Assembly (NCBI GenBank): GCA_965219995.1
Contig: CBDCOX010000002.1
Span: 448,001-512,000, forward strand
Origin: Candidatus Latescibacterota bacterium
GTDB taxonomy: Bacteria; Latescibacterota; UBA2968; GCA-2709665
DNA length: 64,000 nt
Direction of reading: 5' to 3'
Shown: positions 41,455 through 49,030 of the stretch, piece by piece
Position numbering within the stretch: the stretch's first letter is position 1
How the letters are laid out: the number at the start of each line of letters is the position of its first letter
Notes under the pieces: model-generated
Databases searched by the model: none
Told to the model about the DNA's origin: nothing
Seen by the model: the letters and a program-made list of their open reading frames with translations, nothing else
Program-made: the position numbers and the translations under genes

Positions 41455-42762
41455 TTACAACTGCCTGTTCATTGAATCCAGAAAGGCCTCGTTGTTCCTG
41501 GTGCCGGCCATCTTCTCCTTGAGGAACTCCATGGCTTCCAGAGCGGGCATCTGGTTGAGCAGGCGGCGCAGGATCCAGACCCGGTTGAGTTCCTTTTCGT
41601 CCAGCAAAAGCTCCTCTTTCCGGGTCCCGGACAGCGTCACGTCTATGGCGGGATAGATGCGCCGGTTGCTCAGCCGCCGGTCCAGCTTCAGTTCCATGTT
41701 GCCTGTGCCCTTGAATTCTTCGAAAATGACCTCGTCCATGCGACTTCCCGTTTCGACGAGAGCGGTAGACAGGATGGTCAGGCTGCCGCCCTCTTCGATG
41801 TTTCGCGCGGCGCCGAAGAATCGTTTGGGCCACTGCATGGCGCTGGAGTCGAGGCCGCCGGTCAGGATGCGGCCGCTATGGGGCACGACGTTGTTATACG
41901 CACGGGCGAGGCGCGTGATGCTGTCCAGCAGGATCACGACGTCCTGCTGATGTTCCACCAGGCGCTTGGCCTTTTCGATCACCATGTCCGCGACCTGGAC
42001 GTGCCGTGTCGGCGGTTCGTCGAACGTGGAACTGATGACCTCGCCATTGACGGACCTCAACATGTCCGTGACTTCCTCCGGACGCTCGTCTATAAGGAGC
42101 ACGATGAGGTTGACTTCGGGGTGATTCTGGGTGATGGCGTTGGCTATTTTCTGAAGCAACATGGTCTTGCCGGTAAAGGGAGGGGCGACGATCATGCCGC
42201 GCTGCCCCTTGCCGATGGGGGTGAGCAGGTTCATAATACGCGTTGAGAAGTCGTTGGAATCGTATTCCAGCTTCATGCGCTGCCGCGGATGCAGCGGCGT
42301 GAGGTTGTCGAAAAGAGTCTTCTGCTTGGCCTGTTCCGGATCTTCGAAGTTTACGGCCTCAACGCGAATGAGCGCAAAATACTTCTCGTCGTTCTTCGGC
42401 GGGCGGATCTGTCCCGATATCGTGTCACCCGTGCGAAGATTGAAACGTTTGATCTGCGAATGTGAAACGTAGATGTCGTCGGGCCCGGGGAGATAGTTAT
42501 AATTGGGCGACCGGAGGAATCCGAAGCCGTCCTCCAGGATTTCGAGGACGCCTTTGGCGAGTATCAGCCCGTTCTTCGCGGTCTGTGCCTGGATAATCGC
42601 GAAAATCAATTCCTGTTTCCGCAGGCTTCCGTAGCTCTGGATTTCAAGGCTCTGGGCCAACCTCGCGAGTTCGGAAATGGTCATGTTCTGGAGTTCCAGT
42701 ACTTCCACGCCATTTGCCCGGGGAGGCGTTTTTCGAATTTCCCTGGTTGTTTCGGTTGCCAT
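41455..42762 (-). CDS. rho: Transcription termination factor Rho
   Basis: [48 protein letters not shown]; start MATET chosen. Confidence 0.97.
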
Positions 42763-42993
42763 TGGCGGATCCAATTTGCTGGAGTTGCGGAATAGTTGAT
42801 GCGGGCGGTCAATCCTTCGGGGATTCCGGCCGGATTCGGCCCGCCGGGGAGAGCGGCGGATATGTGGATCGGATTTGTGTGACAATAAGGAGGCGGATCG
42901 AGGAAGACCGGGTAACCAGGGATGCCTGAAGCGAGGAGCCGTCTGGTTGTATGCGGTGAAAAAGTGGGAAGGAAGTTGAAGAATACCACCGAA

Positions 42994-43022
42994 AAAGTAA
43001 ACCAAGACGTGAGCATTGTCAA
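42994..43022 (-). promoter_or_regulatory. Promoter of rho
   Basis: Minus strand TTGACA-17bp-TACTTT with an AT-rich upstream region. Confidence 0.65.
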
Positions 43023-43474
43023 GTTTTTTCTTTATTTTTTCTAAAGATAGAGAAAACGAGAGCCGGAATTTGCGCGGGACCGAACCCTCATGGGAGCAAC
43101 CGAAACGGACCCGAAGAATGAGTGCCGTCCGCAGGTTTTGCGTCCGGGCGTCCGGATTCCACGCACGACCCTTCCGTTCAGGGGACGTTCTTCTTCCCGG
43201 TCGAAATCGAGGAGGAAAACGTTCAGATATCCAGGGTGCGTACTCGCCAGAAGCCGGAATGCCAATCCGCGTTTCAACTCATTCCTGCCGAGTAAGTTAT
43301 GCGCATAAATCGTGACGCCGGTCAGGGCGGGTTCCCCCGGTTGCGCCCGGAAGGGCCATGGGTCGGGTCGACCCGTTCTGACGGAGAATCGGTCTTGCAT
43401 TTCGGGGATGGGATGCATAGGTTACCAGCCCGTCGATAAAGTCCATCCGGGCTGCGTCCGACCGGAGAGCCGTC

Positions 43475-44548
43475 ATGTCGAATTCTGCCGCCGATTGCGG
43501 CATCGAGTTGCTCGAGGGCCTGAACGAAGGCGTCATTGCGTTCGACCGGCATCGCTGTGCCGTGTTGGCCAACGGGGCGTCGATTCGCCTGCTGGGACTT
43601 GCCGGGCGCGATGTGATCGGCCGCGGCGCCGACGAGCTGTTTGACGGTTGCCCGGAACTGTTGAAAATTCTGGAGGCCGGGTTTAAAGGTCGTCTGTGCC
43701 GCGAACCGAAAGACGTGATCTTGCAGCAGGAAGAGGGTGGAATGCGTCGTTTGGGCGCTACCACGTCGTATCTGAAAGCGGATACAGGCCATGGAGTCGT
43801 TCTGGTTGTACAGGACGTTTCGGCCCTGAAACGGATGGAGTGGGGGATGTACCAGGAGGAAAAGATGAGCGCGCTCGGGCGTCTGGCCGCATCCGTCGCT
43901 CACGAGGTCCGGAACCCGCTGGGCGCGGTCGACATTCAGCTGCAGCTTCTGGAAGATGACCTGAAGGACGTCGAAGAGGGACTGAGGGGCCGTGTTTATC
44001 GCAGGCTCAATATCGCGCAGATGGAAATGAAGCGGCTCGACAGGATTGTACACAATTTTCTGAGGTTTACCCGAACCCCGAGGCTGGATCTGCAGCGGAT
44101 AAGCCTCAACAGCGTGGTTCGACACGTTTTCGACCTGGTCTCACCGGAGGCGCGCGAACGGGGCGTTCGGCTGAATCTGGATCTCCTTGAAGGTCTTCCC
44201 GCGGTGGATGGAGATGAAAGCCAGCTTGGCCAGGCCGTCCTGAATATGACCGTCAATGCGTTCCAGGCCATGACATCGGGCGGAGAACTCTCCGCCCGAA
44301 CGCGGATGGATGCCGAGGGCAGTCAGGTCCGCCTCTCGATTTCGGATACCGGATGCGGGATTCCGGACGAGGAAATCGACCGGATATTCGAGCTCTATTA
44401 TACGACTCGCGATGAAGGGACCGGCCTTGGGCTCTCCATTGCCCAGCAGATCATCTATCAGCATCGGGGCCACATCGAAGTGGAGAGCGAAGCGGGCGAG
44501 GGAGCTGTTTTCAAGGTTTATCTGCCCACCCCCGGACCCACGCGTTAG
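43475..44548 (+). CDS. Cytoplasmic PAS-domain sensor histidine kinase (NtrB/AtoS-like)
   Basis: PAS start LNEGVIAFD, H-box AHEVRNPL, N-box NAFQA, DTGCGI, GTGLGL; no TM segment. Confidence 0.92.
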   Translation: MSNSAADCGIELLEGLNEGVIAFDRHRCAVLANGASIRLLGLAGRDVIGRGADELFDGCPELLKILEAGFKGRLCREPKDVILQQEEGGMRRLGATTSYLKADTGHGVVLVVQDVSALKRMEWGMYQEEKMSALGRLAASVAHEVRNPLGAVDIQLQLLEDDLKDVEEGLRGRVYRRLNIAQMEMKRLDRIVHNFLRFTRTPRLDLQRISLNSVVRHVFDLVSPEARERGVRLNLDLLEGLPAVDGDESQLGQAVLNMTVNAFQAMTSGGELSARTRMDAEGSQVRLSISDTGCGIPDEEIDRIFELYYTTRDEGTGLGLSIAQQIIYQHRGHIEVESEAGEGAVFKVYLPTPGPTR

Positions 44549-44588
44549 CGGGCCGTTACCGGTGAACGGTGCCGACGGACGGATAGAC

Positions 44589-45950
44589 ATGGAAACCAAA
44601 GATATCAGGATCTTTGTTGCCGACGACGAATACCACATATGCGAGGGGCTTAAAGAGTTCCTGACGAAGGTCGGGTATTCGGTCGATGTCGCGTATGACG
44701 GCGTGGAAGCGTCCGAACGTCTGAGCGCGCGGGTCTACCATGCGGCCATTCTGGATCTGAAGATGCCGGGAATCGACGGGATTGCCCTGTTGAAGCGACT
44801 GAAGAAAACCAGCCCCGATACCGGCGTTATCATGATTACCGCCTTTGGCGAGATCTCCACGGCCGTAGATGCCATGCGCCTGGGTGCGTATGATTACCTG
44901 GCGAAGCCGGTGGATCTCAAACGTCTGCGCCTCTCCCTGCAGCATCTCCTCGAGCATCAGGCTCTGGTCGCCGAAAACAAGGAGTTGCGGGCCTGGCTGG
45001 GATCGACTGAGGCTTTCGGAGAGATCGTGAACCGGAGTCCGGCTATGCAGAAGGTCTGCGATACGCTGGCGCAAGCTGCAATAACCGATGTTCCCGTACT
45101 GGTGATGGGCGATACCGGTACAGGCAAGGAGCTTGTGGCCCGGGCGATCCACCAGCGGAGCAGCCGCCGCGAGGGTCCCCTCGTGGCCGTGAACTGCGGC
45201 GCCGTTCCGGAAACGTTGTTCGAACGTGAGTTGTTCGGCCACATCAAAGGTGCGTTTACGGGCGCCCACGCCGACACGCCGGGCCGGTTCGCCGCCGCGG
45301 AGGCCGGCACGCTGTTCCTGGATGAAGTCGGTGAGATTCCACTCGCCAACCAGGTGGATCTCCTGAGGGTTCTGGAGGAGAAGGTGTACACCCCGGTCGG
45401 CAGCAGCGTGTCCACAAAGGCGGATGTACGGATCATCTTCGCCACGAACAGAAATCTGGATCAGGAAGTGAAGGAGGGTCGATTCCGGGAAGATCTGTAT
45501 TACCGGATCAATGTCGTCCCCATTCGGCTTCCGCAGCTACGAGACCGCAAGGAGGATATTCCGCTGCTTGTCGAGACCTTTCTGGATGAACTCTGCGTGT
45601 CACATCGCAAATCCAGGAAGCGATTTCTGCCGGACGCGATGCGGACGATACTGGACTATGCCTGGCCGGGAAACGTACGGGAGTTGAAGAACACCGTGGA
45701 GCGGATCGTCGTGACGTGTCCGGAGACCGAGGTCGGTCCTCAACGTCTCCCCTCGGGCGTCCGCGCGTCTGCTCCGGTTCCGAAGAATCTCGTTATTCCA
45801 CTGAGTACCTCAATAGAGGAAACGGAACGCCTTCTGATCGAAAATACGCTGGCACACGTCACGTCCAACCGCCAGGAAGCCGCCCGAGTGCTGGGTATCA
45901 GCGTACGTGCCCTCCATTACAAGATCAAGAAATACAGCCTCGGCTCCTGA
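44589..45950 (+). CDS. Sigma54-dependent response regulator (NtrC/AtoC family)
   Basis: Receiver domain (ADDE, LDLKMPG, KP), GDTGTGKE, GAFTGA, LFLDEV, FREDLYYR, WPGNVREL, Fis-type HTH. Confidence 0.95.
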   Translation: METKDIRIFVADDEYHICEGLKEFLTKVGYSVDVAYDGVEASERLSARVYHAAILDLKMPGIDGIALLKRLKKTSPDTGVIMITAFGEISTAVDAMRLGAYDYLAKPVDLKRLRLSLQHLLEHQALVAENKELRAWLGSTEAFGEIVNRSPAMQKVCDTLAQAAITDVPVLVMGDTGTGKELVARAIHQRSSRREGPLVAVNCGAVPETLFERELFGHIKGAFTGAHADTPGRFAAAEAGTLFLDEVGEIPLANQVDLLRVLEEKVYTPVGSSVSTKADVRIIFATNRNLDQEVKEGRFREDLYYRINVVPIRLPQLRDRKEDIPLLVETFLDELCVSHRKSRKRFLPDAMRTILDYAWPGNVRELKNTVERIVVTCPETEVGPQRLPSGVRASAPVPKNLVIPLSTSIEETERLLIENTLAHVTSNRQEAARVLGISVRALHYKIKKYSLGS

Positions 45951-46000
45951 GTAAGGAAGGCTGCGCATCCGGTTTATTCGCCGCCCCGGCCGCGTCCTGC

Positions 46001-46045
46001 TGCAAAATATGCGCAATCGTTACGGTTTCGGATGCAAAATTTGCG
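46001..46045. promoter_or_regulatory. Tandem candidate enhancer (UAS) sites
   Basis: TGCAAAATATGCG (46001) and TGCAAAATTTGCG (46033), 32 bp apart, 100-145 bp upstream of the -24 element. Confidence 0.6.
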
Positions 46046-46143
46046 TTATCAGACGTAGTGGAACAGATCTCTCGCGCCCGGCGATTGGTATCGTTGGGCG
46101 CAAGTATTTTAATATTAAACACTTGTGTTTTTTGCGCAAAAAC

Positions 46144-46159
46144 TGGCATTAAAGTTGCT
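46144..46159 (+). promoter_or_regulatory. Sigma54 (-24/-12) promoter
   Basis: TGGCAT-TAAAG-TTGCT with exact GG-N10-GC spacing, next to a bEBP gene. Confidence 0.85.
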
Positions 46160-46188
46160 TATGTTTTTGGGGACCATATCATTGGAAT

Positions 46189-46228
46189 CGCTGATCGCTT
46201 GGATTTTCCGCTGATCGCTTGGATTTTC
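46189..46228 (+). repeat. Perfect 2 x 20-bp tandem repeat
   Basis: CGCTGATCGCTTGGATTTTC at 46189-46208 and 46209-46228. Confidence 0.9.
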
Positions 46229-46334
46229 ATCAAAACCGTGAACTTCGCGGTGGTTATCGAGGGTTTGATATCGCGAGGTGACACACGGTTCAATCCGAAC
46301 AGTCTGCAAAAACTGCACTTGCATCCCTGCAAAC

Positions 46335-46883
46335 ATGGCGCTGTCAAAATTCTACTACAGCAGTGAGTGGGAAACGGACCTGAGCGGCGTGGTCGGCTTT
46401 CATCCGGAGACGATGGTCGCGAGCCTGGCGCCCCGCGACCGGATGGGTGCAATCAAGGCGCTTGTCGACCCGTTGCACGCATCGGGGTACGTGACCGACA
46501 GTCTGCGGTTCCTTCAGTCTGTTCTGGACAGAGAAGACCTCGAGAGCACCGCTGTCGGGAACGGGATTGCTTTTCCCCATGCCCGTTGCGGTTCCGCCGC
46601 GCATCTGGGTATGGCGCTGGGCATTTCTCCGGTCGGCGTGGATTTTCACTCGGAGACCCACCCGGAGCCGGTTCGACTCATCTGCCTTGTGTCGGTGCCC
46701 GGGGAGGGCGACATAAGATATCTGCCCCTTCTGGGCTGTTTGTGCAGGCTGTTTCATGAAGAATTCACCGCAACATTTCTCAAGTCCCGTTCGGCAGAGG
46801 AAATGAATGGTCTGCTGATGCGGCAGATGCGCCTGCATGGCGCGATGCCCGAGGCGAACAGGGCGCACGTTTTGGCGACGTAG
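46335..46883 (+). CDS. PTS EIIA (Ntr/fructose-mannitol type) protein
   Basis: LDREDLESTAVGNGIAFPHAR phospho-His motif, GVDF, PVRLI. Confidence 0.85.
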   Translation: MALSKFYYSSEWETDLSGVVGFHPETMVASLAPRDRMGAIKALVDPLHASGYVTDSLRFLQSVLDREDLESTAVGNGIAFPHARCGSAAHLGMALGISPVGVDFHSETHPEPVRLICLVSVPGEGDIRYLPLLGCLCRLFHEEFTATFLKSRSAEEMNGLLMRQMRLHGAMPEANRAHVLAT

Positions 46884-46921
46884 AATTGGATTACGCACAC
46901 TAATCTTCTGGAGGTCGGACC

Positions 46922-47773
46922 GTGGCTGGAATTATGATTCAGGATAGCGAATCTCTTGATCTCTACCTCAGGGATATCGCTTCTTCGGAACCGCTGACTG
47001 CCGAGACCGAGATCGCGCTCGCGCACCGGATCCGGAAGGGAGACCAGCGGGCCAGGGACAGGCTGGTTGCATCGAATCTCCGTTTTGTCGTCAGCGTCGC
47101 CAGGGAGTACCAGAACCATGGCGTGCCTTTGGCCGATCTCATCAGTGCGGGAAACATGGGCCTGATGACGGCTGCGGAGCGATTTGACGGGACGCGCGGG
47201 TTCAAGTTCATATCCTATGCGGTCTGGTGGATCCGCCAGGCCATCCATCAAAGCCTCGCACAGGATTCCCGTGTGGTCAGGTTACCTATAAACCGAATCG
47301 ATCTGTTGCACAATATCGCGAAGGTGTCGCGAGAGATCCGGCAATCTGAAGAGGCCGATCCCGATCCTGAGACGATCGCTGAGAAACTCGGCGTTTCGGT
47401 GGACATGGTACAGGATACCCTCCTCCGGGCGAGGGACGTCTGGTCGCTCGATGCGTCGTTCAAGGACGATGACGACCACAGCCTGCTCCATATTCTGCCG
47501 GACAGTTCTCAAAAGGCGCCGGACCTGGAAGTGGTCGACGAGTCGGTCAAGGATCAGGTCAAGATGGTCCTCGAAACACTCGATGCGCGGGAAGCGGAAG
47601 TGCTGCGGCTTTATTTCGGGTTGGGCGACGAGGAAGCAATGACGCTGGAGGAGATCGGCACCAGGTTCAGCCTTACGCGGGAACGCGTCCGGCAGATAAA
47701 GGAAAAGGCCCTCCGTCGACTTCGCCATCCGCGGCGCCGGCTGCAACTCGAGCCGTTGATGGAGTCGGCGTAG
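46922..47773 (+). CDS. RpoD/RpoS-family sigma70 factor lacking region 1.1
   Basis: LDLYLRDI (1.2), NLRFVVSVA, DLISAGNMGL, GFKFISYAVWWIRQAI, TLEEIG...TRERVRQI; SD GGAGG. Confidence 0.93.
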   Translation: MAGIMIQDSESLDLYLRDIASSEPLTAETEIALAHRIRKGDQRARDRLVASNLRFVVSVAREYQNHGVPLADLISAGNMGLMTAAERFDGTRGFKFISYAVWWIRQAIHQSLAQDSRVVRLPINRIDLLHNIAKVSREIRQSEEADPDPETIAEKLGVSVDMVQDTLLRARDVWSLDASFKDDDDHSLLHILPDSSQKAPDLEVVDESVKDQVKMVLETLDAREAEVLRLYFGLGDEEAMTLEEIGTRFSLTRERVRQIKEKALRRLRHPRRRLQLEPLMESA

Positions 47774-47831
47774 GCCGACGCGGCATGTTCCCGGCCCGAA
47801 AGGGGTGGGGACGATTCCCGCGGGGGATTCT

Positions 47832-47869
47832 ACCGGGCGGAGATGAGAAACGGTCTCCGCCCGGTTTTC
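47832..47869 (+). terminator. Terminator after the sigma factor gene
   Basis: 12-bp stem ACCGGGCGGAGA/TCTCCGCCCGGT followed by a T-rich tail. Confidence 0.65.
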
Positions 47870-48009
47870 TTGCATTCTTCAACCGCGGGAGGGTACCGGA
47901 TTCGACTCAGATAAACCGGGATGTATCGATCGGTTTCCCGTTCGTTGTGACAAATGGGCGGAACTTTCGGTGAGAGCACTGTTTTTTTCTTCCTCCGGGT
48001 TCGGCGCAC

Positions 48010-48039
48010 TTGACAAATTCCCACAATCGGGCCTATATT
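48010..48039 (+). promoter_or_regulatory. Promoter of hup
   Basis: TTGACA-18bp-TATATT. Confidence 0.6.
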
Positions 48040-48071
48040 CAGGGCAAATTCCAGAAAGGGGGTGAATTGCC

Positions 48072-48347
48072 ATGTCGAACAGGGCCGATCTAGTCGATGC
48101 GATTGCAAATCAGGCCGGTCTCTCAAAAAGGAATGCGGAATCCGCACTGCGTGTCGTTCTGAACGAAATCGCCGATTCGCTCAAAAACGGTGATCGCGTC
48201 GCTATTTCCGGGTTCGGGACGTTTTCGGTCGGAACCAGAGCCGCACGGACCGGTCGTAATCCACAGACGGGCGAGACGATTCAGATTTCCGCGGGCAAGA
48301 CCGTTCGTTTCAAAGCTGGAAAAGCACTTAAGGACGCTGTCAACTAA
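48072..48347 (+). CDS. hup: DNA-binding protein HU
   Basis: GFGTFSV, ARTGRNPQTGE, FKAGKALKDAVN. Confidence 0.96.
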   Translation: MSNRADLVDAIANQAGLSKRNAESALRVVLNEIADSLKNGDRVAISGFGTFSVGTRAARTGRNPQTGETIQISAGKTVRFKAGKALKDAVN

Positions 48348-48374
48348 CCGATATTTCTTCAATTCTGTCCATGG

Positions 48375-48439
48375 AGCCTCGAGAGCAACACTCGATCGAG
48401 GCTTTTTTTCTTGACAGAGCGGATTCCCGGAAATATACT
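48375..48439 (+). promoter_or_regulatory. hup terminator directly followed by a sigma70-type promoter
   Basis: AGCCTCGA...TCGAGGCT followed by a T run, then TTGACA-17bp-TATACT (48411-48439). Confidence 0.65.
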
Positions 48440-48511
48440 GTTCCGCGTGTTCCATAAGATGGCGGGCCGGAAAACTCCGGTACGTTCCCGGCTGTCCAGG
48501 CGGAGACTGAA

Positions 48512-49030
48512 ATGAATCGCCGATTGACGTTCTTGATTCTTACACTGAGTGCGGGGTTGGCGCTGGGCTGCAGTGATCGCCTGGCGCAGATGCAGGAGCA
48601 GCTTGCCGGCACGTGGGAGTTGGAGTCCCGAACGTTGCCGGATGGGACGGTGCTTGGCAGGGCCGAGATTTCGGGCGTGTTCTCGTGGCAGCCGATCGAT
48701 TCGCGAAAAGCCCACGTCACGCTGAACCTGCTCATGGACGCGGCCGGCGAAAAACCCAGGACATTCGATTTCTCCGCGAGCAAATACGAAATCTCGACCT
48801 CCGCGATTACGCGTTCGCGGTATCTGCTTATGCGGCAGGGTTACCGCTCGTCGTCCGAATCGCCGATCACGATATACCATAAAGCCAAGGTCGAAAAGGG
48901 TAAGATTACGCTCGAGGACGGGCTGATTCGCATCACGCACGAGCGAGGGTACAGCGAAGAGTTCGGGGGCGATCGGATGGTCGCATCGTTTCCCGGTGTA
49001 TTTGAGGATACCTGGAAGCGGGTACGGTAG
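48512..49030 (+). CDS. Putative lipoprotein, lipocalin-like
   Basis: MNRR, hydrophobic stretch, lipobox LALGC; LAGTWEL motif. Confidence 0.65.
   Translation: MNRRLTFLILTLSAGLALGCSDRLAQMQEQLAGTWELESRTLPDGTVLGRAEISGVFSWQPIDSRKAHVTLNLLMDAAGEKPRTFDFSASKYEISTSAITRSRYLLMRQGYRSSSESPITIYHKAKVEKGKITLEDGLIRITHERGYSEEFGGDRMVASFPGVFEDTWKRVR

Follow-up and report, generated by a model that had tools for sequence, protein, structure and literature searches.

In Borrelia burgdorferi an NtrC-type regulator and sigma-54 together transcribe the gene of an alternative sigma factor of the RpoD family, and the cognate kinase of the regulator is cytoplasmic (PMC11109971, PMC7649798, and PMC2940757). In Vibrio sigma-54 and its activator likewise drive a gene of the sigma-70 family, FliA being the product of a class II gene (passages in PMC6504787). 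Here we describe a locus from Candidatus Latescibacterota in which the parts of such a cascade lie side by side. The locus is found in a metagenome-assembled genome (MAG) of 5.44 Mb in two contigs, which is 98.6% complete; the window, i.e., the whole stretch of DNA that was analysed, covers 64 kb (C2:448001-512000), and coordinates below are those of the window unless preceded by C2 or by the name of a related locus. Genes for a histidine kinase, an activator, an enzyme IIA (EIIA) of the phosphotransferase system (PTS) and a sigma factor follow each other on the plus strand, with a gap of 384 nt between the activator and EIIA genes (unit 43475-47875). Sensor, activator, three operator-like sites, promoter and output sigma factor are contained in less than 4.5 kb. 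Judged from the sequence it is quite likely that the locus is a two-tier transcription switch at a single site, where the kinase and the activator would act on a sigma-54 promoter from which EIIA and an alternative sigma factor are expressed. A preliminary description of the locus had listed the same series of parts (kinase, enhancer-binding protein, -24/-12 promoter, EIIA and sigma factor), and re-analysis of domains and motifs bore it out; its end coordinate, 48347, is about 470 nt too far and takes in a gene for an HU protein that lies behind the terminator. The features are as follows.

43475..44548, plus strand: soluble PAS histidine kinase with NtrB-like architecture (PAS, HisKA and HATPase_c by Pfam; 357 aa)
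44589..45950, plus strand: sigma-54 enhancer-binding response regulator, the activator (Response_reg, Sigma54_activat and HTH_8 by Pfam; 453 aa)
46001..46013, no strand assigned: upstream palindrome 1, TGCAAAATATGCG, of the TGCAA-N3-TTGCR type, putative activator site
46033..46045, no strand assigned: upstream palindrome 2, TGCAAAATTTGCG, putative activator site starting 111 nt ahead of the -24 motif
46074..46101, plus strand: GC-rich terminator-like hairpin between enhancer and promoter (12-pair stem), followed by AAGTATTTTA
46113..46125, plus strand: weak IHF-like site, one mismatch to an E. coli consensus, in a tract of 76% A+T
46144..46159, plus strand: predicted sigma-54 -24/-12 promoter TGGCATTAAAGTTGCT, an exact match; start predicted near 46170
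46190..46229, plus strand: 20-nt tandem duplication in the leader (GCTGATCGCTTGGATTTTC plus one base), read from the sequence
46305..46317, no strand assigned: third palindrome, TGCAAAAACTGCA, within the predicted transcribed leader
46335..46883, plus strand: PTS EIIA of the fructose/mannitol/Ntr type (PF00359, PTS_EIIA_2, 76.6 bits; 182 aa)
46922..47773, plus strand: RpoD-like alternative sigma factor, group-2-like (regions 1.2, 2, 3 and 4 by Pfam; 283 aa; GTG start behind GGAGG)
47832..47875, plus strand: predicted intrinsic terminator closing the EIIA-sigma unit (hairpin and T-run 47832-47865; 13-pair stem with 9 G-C pairs), followed by TTTCTTGCAT
48072..48347: HU/IHF-family gene behind the sigma terminator

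The exact -24/-12 element that had been placed at 46144-46159 is the single match to TGGCAY-N5-TTGCW on either strand of the window, against 0.10 expected from 100 shuffles. The preliminary description had left the presence of rpoN to be confirmed. The genome carries one copy (C2:883565-885001), which at 428.8 bits lies well over the curated cut-off of TIGR02395 (277.35), and rpoN was found in 50 of the 53 genomes of the order. Fourteen proteins of the genome match the sigma-54 interaction domain strongly and over its full length. Within 4 kb of the 14 activator genes lie 9 of 138 relaxed -24/-12 motifs, where 2.7 were expected, and as several of these are canonical this clustering suggests that the usual grammar of sigma-54 promoters applies in this organism. 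A strict motif was absent from the 700 nt upstream of each of the six other sigma paralogues. Between palindrome 2 and the promoter stands the hairpin at 46074-46101, which is kept within the genus alignment and is not evident in the two more distant loci that were read (L071 and L085); by blocking read-through from the kinase and activator genes it would insulate the target operon and make synthesis of the sigma factor dependent on sigma-54. The IHF-like site is weak. It is indeed a one-mismatch match to an E. coli consensus in an A+T-rich tract (42 nt, 76% A+T), but the aligned loci of the genus do not preserve its sequence, and 13 such matches occur in the whole window when both strands are counted.

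The element is conserved among relatives. With the EIIA as query a strong match was obtained in 38 of 41 genomes sampled from the order, the matches in the other three being weak. In all 30 loci that were returned activator, EIIA and sigma factor genes have the same order, and all 30 have TGGCA[CT]-N5-TTGCT in the gap between the activator and EIIA genes. A second sample, taken with 7-kb flanks, gave 49 loci, of which two belonged to other paralogues and two were truncated at the sigma gene; the remaining 45 all contain the -24/-12 element. The two sets overlap in genomes. Synteny of activator, EIIA and sigma genes in related MAGs (30/30) and retention of the motif in orthologous loci (30/30 and 45/45), both of which had been proposed as checks, were found accordingly. 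The GG and the GC of the element never vary while the five-base spacer takes at least nine forms, and this combination is the pattern that purifying selection on a sigma-54 promoter predicts.

A similar constancy was seen for the palindromes. The two upstream copies, each of 13 bp and 32 bp apart, begin 143 and 111 nt upstream of the motif. Both had been noted previously as enhancer-like repeats and both are real; the third, at 46305-46317, had been missed. The upstream pair, allowing at most one mismatch in each palindrome and a distance of 31-34 bp, is unique to this locus in the 5.44-Mb genome, and for this reason the activator looks dedicated to the EIIA-sigma operon. Within the order the distance between the two is 31-34 bp at 44 of the 45 loci and 30 bp at the remaining one, and a leader palindrome is present at +116 to +170 from the start of the motif in every one of the 45. 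The leader between promoter and EIIA gene is about 165-175 nt long. Its 20-nt tandem duplication is specific to this genome, as it is not present in the 14 other aligned loci of the genus, and it moves the third palindrome from about +141 to about +161. No Rfam family matched 42700-48600 at E <= 1, i.e., no known riboswitch or leader RNA is present there. Use of the leader palindrome as a downstream enhancer would have a precedent in Vibrio, where FlrC sites typically lie downstream of the start yet are true enhancers (passages in PMC6504787). The leader palindrome may instead be repressive.

Conservation extends beyond the order. In family f4, which belongs to another order of the same class, this type of sigma factor was found in 75 of 76 genomes. 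Fifty loci from outside the order were compared, 49 of them from f4 or f3 and the remaining one, L179, from f9. The activator gene lies upstream of the sigma gene in 46 of these (45 from f4, and L179), 44 of the 46 have the strict motif between the two genes, and 43 have a leader palindrome. A palindrome about 111 nt upstream is present in most, and in f4 the -111 position is kept within a few nucleotides. In L179, which belongs to another class, genes for kinase, activator, EIIA and sigma factor and a strict motif are all present, with extra DNA between activator and promoter. The cassette therefore looks old in the phylum. Five loci lack an EIIA gene between promoter and sigma gene (L085 in f1, and L127, L167, L168 and L173 in f4). 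These loci, which include the genera g25, g23, and g22, retain activator, palindromes, promoter and sigma factor, and since promoter and sigma gene are kept the sigma factor appears to be the constant core output of the circuit.

Several observations weigh against a functional promoter and operator arrangement. Where the motif is expected L173 has only a variant with one mismatch, and in L163 no convincing motif is seen between activator and sigma genes. All the loci are kin and the counts given above overstate the independent support. The palindrome pattern taken singly is not enriched across the window (8 matches against 6.1 expected), nor is the strict promoter motif enriched in the genome (10 matches against 7 in one Markov simulation). 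As the genome-wide count is close to chance, the case for the promoter has to rest on position and conservation. The same count would fit the idea that the -24/-12 match is not used at all and that the EIIA and sigma genes are transcribed by read-through or from an unrecognised promoter of the sigma-70 type. This is hardly credible, as across two orders and in a single locus of a second class GG and GC stay fixed whatever the sequence of the spacer, a terminator-like hairpin stands upstream of the motif, and a search of 45950-46335 for a sigma-70-like match gave none.

Expression of EIIA and sigma factor from a single unit is also consistent with the layout of the two genes. They are separated by 38 nt, and 12 of the 17 listed relatives have a gap of 32-62 nt. 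GGAGGTT stands right before the sigma start in 16 of these 17, the other one having GGAGGTC. No terminator-like site was found on the plus strand between 46101 and 47832, and the terminator that had been reported to close the two-gene unit is borne out by a 13-pair hairpin with a T-run. RNA-library contigs from one study, assembled from a relative that is 90-95% alike, were also compared, and neither a transcription start nor an expression level can be read from them. One contig of 1623 nt (X3 record 17) spans 46209-47769 and covers both genes, which is coverage and not a single transcript. It starts at 46209, as does X1 record 1, and the end of the X3 contig at this point is loose and adapter-like. 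The region 45900-46167 is covered by no contig, and since the contigs are assembled this implies neither a start site nor upstream silence. The HU gene (48072..48347) is a separate unit, because it lies behind the terminator and has a near-consensus TTGACA-18-TATATT match of its own at 48010-48039. An HU homologue is found downstream of the sigma gene in many, though not all, of the related loci; HU might conceivably help to bend the sigma-54 promoter region.

At several loci of the genus an insert of about 165-205 nt with shared sequence (...CTGTCTTAAAA..CCCAGCGGTCTTCGCGCGGCTGCAAA...) occupies differing intergenic spots. It is found in the gap between EIIA and sigma genes (L045, L049, and L088), between activator and palindromes (L017, L019, and L022) and in the gap between kinase and activator genes (L088). 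It looks like a small mobile repeat, and it leaves promoter and palindromes undisturbed.

The kinase reaches a Kyte-Doolittle mean of just 1.05 in its most hydrophobic stretch of 19 residues and is therefore taken to have no membrane span; together with the Pfam domains this confirms that it is a PAS kinase without transmembrane segments. Its H-box reads SVAHEVRNPLG, and H143 is unchanged in 15 of 15 aligned orthologues. The best NCBIfam match is AtoS, with 282.5 bits against a cut-off of 646. The activator gene begins 40 nt past the kinase gene, and the product has the previously noted GAFTGA motif at residue 221, a Walker A motif GDTGTGKE and a receiver Asp within AILDLKMPG. It scores 432 bits with AtoC (cut-off 714) and 405 bits with NtrC (TIGR01818, cut-off 558.6), both short of the cut-off, and judged by its domains alone it is a member of the NtrC-type class. 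None of the four cassette proteins attains an NCBIfam equivalog cut-off, and the protein names used here consequently denote architecture and not orthology.

The NtrB architecture of the kinase, and the presence of NtrC among the best family matches of the activator, could also mean that the two proteins are the general NtrB-NtrC nitrogen regulators of the phylum and that the EIIA-sigma operon is one target among many. E. coli glnAp2 has two upstream sites with a spacing that resembles the 32 bp found here. Outside the focal genus 10 loci have a glnD-like uridylyltransferase gene upstream in divergent orientation, and in 24 loci the sigma gene is followed at 0.8-5 kb by a gene for glutamine synthetase (in L085, 2327-5158 on the minus strand and 9364-10737 on the plus strand, respectively), and these flanking genes hint at a nitrogen connection of the cassette. 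On the other hand, the palindrome pair is unique in the genome, a sigma-54 motif or palindrome was found in 0 of 24 upstream regions of glnA near the related loci, in the focal genome glnD gave no match at E <= 1e-20 and that type of glnA is missing (best match 38%), and the equivalog cut-offs of NtrC and NR(II) are not reached. A general nitrogen regulator is accordingly regarded as quite improbable, and a kinase-activator pair acting on the adjacent operon is preferred.

The genome encodes seven RpoD-like sigma factors, which are about 278-293 aa long and without exception lack region 1.1. The focal sigma factor had been singled out as lacking region 1.1, which is correct but not distinctive; that it might be the only RpoD-type factor of the genome had been named as a reason to abandon the cascade, and with seven such factors, one of which is a better candidate for the primary sigma factor, it is not. 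The focal sigma factor scores 279.7 bits with RpoD (cut-off 555) and 267.8 bits with RpoS (TIGR02394, cut-off 378.7) and attains neither cut-off. The paralogue at C2:2402418-2403275 ranks first with the RpoD models, with 308.8 and 303.9 bits against 279.7 and 264.2 bits for the focal protein. This paralogue is 98-100% identical in the genus, 86-95% across the order and 75-86% in families f3, f7, f8, f10, f11, and f12. The focal sigma factor is 96-99% identical in the genus and 75-99% across the order, and matches of at least 75% were obtained only within the order (f1, 21/21; f2, 29/31), where the two f2 genomes without a match are 90-91% complete. By score and breadth the paralogue looks like the primary sigma factor, and the focal sigma factor is probably not the primary one. 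With regions 1.2-4 present and a non-primary status by comparison, its sequence classifies it as group-2-like.

A quick maximum-likelihood tree placed all 21 of the 21 cassette-linked sigma factors in one clade with a Shimodaira-Hasegawa-like approximate likelihood ratio test (SH-aLRT) support of 93, i.e., below the 95 mark, and with seven unlinked duplicates nested inside. The candidate primary type and another paralogue type fall outside this clade, and the C2:2402418 paralogue forms a separate clade with its f3 orthologue (support 99). It could be argued that the 283-aa protein is nevertheless the housekeeping sigma factor and that the sigma-54 promoter merely boosts its expression. Its identity in the genus and order is high, short primary sigma factors without region 1.1 are known in Bacteroidota, and its region 4.2 is nearly the same as that of the candidate primary sigma factor. 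However, the other paralogue scores higher with the RpoD models, is more conserved and more widespread and stands in its own clade, and the focal type at 75% identity or more is confined to the order, which makes a housekeeping role very improbable. One result counts against the assignment of the non-primary status: the candidate primary sigma factor was not found at E <= 1e-120 in f4 (0/76), f5, f6, f9, f13 and f14.

With respect to f4, more distant families do match the candidate primary sigma factor at this threshold, and in f4 the main sigma factor may have been replaced or have become divergent. Upstream of three sigma paralogues (G000, C2:202289-203260, 2941232-2942083, and 147891-148859) there are pairs of TTGACA-like and TATAAT-like hexamers, which suggest that the main sigma factor of the phylum reads classical -35/-10 promoters rather than those of the Bacteroidota type. 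The promoter type of Bacteroidota contrasts with the classical -35/-10 one. A contig titled Candidatus Komeilibacteria (L089, 4507-7789) contains three tandem genes for RpoD-like sigma factors that are 42-57% identical to the focal one; this triple arrangement is unusual for Komeilibacteria and may be a binning error.

Returning to the alternative sigma factor, residue H109 (AIHQSL, region 2.4) is the same in all 18 orthologues, while the six paralogues all have L at this position. Region 4.2 is near-identical to that of the candidate primary sigma factor. The promoter preference of the focal sigma factor would from these residues be overlapping with, but shifted relative to, that of the primary sigma factor.

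The start of the EIIA gene is taken to be the ATG at 46335, which is kept in 15 of 15 loci of the genus, rather than the GTG at 46278 with which the reading frame begins. The protein has a GxAxPHAR motif in which H82 is unchanged in 17 of 17 aligned sequences (37-85% identity). H82 is presumably the phosphorylated histidine, by analogy with other EIIA_2 proteins. The gene (C2:494335-494883) is about 390 kb from rpoN and hence outside the rpoN operon. The genome contains three EIIA_2 genes, one HPr gene adjoining one enzyme I (EI) gene, and one HprK gene. No EIIC of the PF02378 type was found in the 98.6%-complete genome, the mannose, galactitol and ascorbate types of EIIC not being part of the search. 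Given EI, HPr and HprK, and in the absence of a match to the PF02378 permease, the PTS is here probably regulatory, as in PTS-Ntr. Placing the focal protein in a described equivalog family meets with low scores, which tell against such an assignment: it reaches 64.4 bits with the FruA type (cut-off 103.5) and 32.3 bits with PtsN (TIGR01419, cut-off 138.7).

Which protein the EIIA acts on may be approached from the distribution of the genes. Both kinase and EIIA genes are present in 53 loci and both are absent in five, the kinase gene alone is absent in one, and none has a kinase gene without an EIIA gene; the tally counts L088, where an insertion widens the gap between kinase and activator genes. 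This co-variation is the reason for leaning, though weakly, toward the kinase as the partner of EIIA. PtsN binds and regulates the kinases KdpD and PhoR (passages in PMC13104625), and it is the preferred, though tentative, possibility that EIIA acts in an analogous way on the transmitter of the adjacent kinase. The strength of the co-variation is reduced in two ways. It comes down to about two independent losses, because the four f4 loci that lack both genes share upstream neighbours, and L076 is a counter-example. At this locus (151-4696, genus g6) the kinase gene is replaced in one genome by foreign genes, one for a 1262-aa secreted-looking protein and the other a 180-aa open reading frame, while activator, promoter, EIIA and sigma factor are retained.

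EIIA could on the contrary act on the sigma factor, as a phosphorylation-dependent anti-sigma or stability factor and not as a regulator of the kinase. EIIA stands directly before the sigma gene in one unit, which is a usual layout for sigma regulators, and in Azotobacter vinelandii unphosphorylated EIIA-Ntr promotes the degradation of RpoS by ClpAP (passages in PMC12923157). Furthermore, a second gene for an EIIA-like protein of 154-163 aa with GVAIPH or GVALPH, which could act alongside the first, begins 12-45 nt past the sigma stop codon in five loci from several genera (L056, 7864-8355; L058, 7877-8350; L071, 7898-8368; L085, 7876-8364; L066, 916-1380). L085, which has lost the upstream EIIA and the kinase, has retained this post-sigma gene. 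Yet four loci (L127, L167, L168 and L173) have promoter and sigma gene with neither EIIA gene adjacent, from which it follows that the sigma factor should work without EIIA, the presence of EIIA tracks that of the kinase, and the second EIIA has no close copy in the focal genus (best match in the focal genome 32%). Action on the sigma factor instead of on the kinase therefore seems unlikely. A prediction of a three-chain complex of kinase residues 120-357, sigma factor and EIIA as the partner gave scores of 0.59, 0.59 and 0.62; these became 0.00 and 0.00 with the partner replaced and 0.61 with the sigma factor replaced, and the outcome speaks neither for nor against any binding. A broader proposal, that the EIIAs of the cassette are phosphorylation-dependent partner switches which receive their phosphate state via HPr and either clamp the NtrB-like kinase or bind the sigma factor, is put forward as a rather doubtful one.

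Taken together, the two-tier switch might operate in the following way. The cytoplasmic PAS kinase would phosphorylate its partner, the NtrC-type activator. This would bind the TGCAA-N3-TTGCR palindromes whose centres lie some 131 and 163 nt upstream of the expected start, and probably the third palindrome about 140 nt downstream of it (about 120 nt in relatives without the duplication), and would open the sigma-54 holoenzyme at 46144-46159. The predicted transcript would comprise EIIA and the lineage-specific RpoD-like sigma factor and end at the hairpin at 47832-47865. Newly made, the non-housekeeping sigma factor would compete for core polymerase and redirect transcription. EIIA, as the terminus of a presumably transport-less PTS (EI, HPr and HprK), would report the phosphoenolpyruvate (PEP)/carbon state to the circuit at the post-translational level. 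The switch might, as the preliminary description had conjectured, serve stress, dormancy or a change of life stage, with EIIA providing feedback.

When these features are set against the known systems, the Hk2-Rrp2-RpoN-RpoS pathway of Borrelia shares with the locus an NtrC-type regulator that together with sigma-54 leads to an alternative sigma factor, as well as a cytoplasmic kinase. The Borrelia rpoS gene is situated apart from rrp2, whereas kinase, activator, enhancer sites, promoter and target sigma factor are contiguous in Latescibacterota. The activator here also keeps the HTH_8 domain along with conserved palindromes, EIIA is encoded together with the sigma factor, and the phylum is a different one. 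The flagellar hierarchy of Vibrio with FlrA and FlrC has in common the step from sigma-54 to a sigma gene and downstream enhancer sites, but the target is here RpoD-like with region 1.2 and not sigma-28, the activator looks specific for a single promoter, and flagellar genes were not seen in the cassette. Enterobacterial NtrB-NtrC at glnAp2 is similar in its soluble PAS kinase of about 350 aa, its REC-AAA+-HTH activator and its two upstream sites about three helical turns apart; it differs in that equivalog cut-offs are not reached here and in that the target is a sigma operon and not glnA. PTS-Ntr with PtsN shares the EIIA_2 fold with its histidine, EI and HPr, and the lack of a detected PF02378-type permease, but the present EIIA lies outside the rpoN operon, scores far below the PtsN cut-off and is predicted to share a sigma-54 promoter with a sigma factor. 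Group 2 sigma factors including RpoS share regions 1.2-4 with the focal protein, and the closeness of region 4.2 to that of the presumed primary sigma factor suggests that the two overlap in promoter recognition; the RpoS equivalog cut-off is not attained and H109 in region 2.4 is specific to the clade.

What is new is thus a complete circuit at one site, having a DNA-binding type of activator with sites on both sides of the promoter, an EIIA gene within the sigma operon, and conservation in two or more orders of an uncultured phylum, with one further locus in a second class. In the full-text literature, most subscription journals being outside its scope, no published description of this arrangement in Latescibacterota was found, in line with the earlier statement that none was known in FCB-like lineages. 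As no cultured member of Latescibacterota is known to us, regulation in this phylum can be read solely from genomes. The locus indicates that sigma-54 above a second sigma factor is not peculiar to spirochaetes or to flagellar systems. The fixed geometry, with a palindrome 111 nt before the -24 element and another in the leader, offers a clean case of enhancers flanking a sigma-54 promoter, and each part of the cassette can be rebuilt in E. coli. The presence of a PTS EIIA inside a sigma cascade provides a way to test whether a sigma programme is gated by carbon or PEP. If the proposed reading is true, the locus would be a PTS-gated sigma cascade that ties the PEP/carbon state of the cell to a sigma switch, a coupling undescribed so far and conserved in at least two orders of this uncultured phylum.

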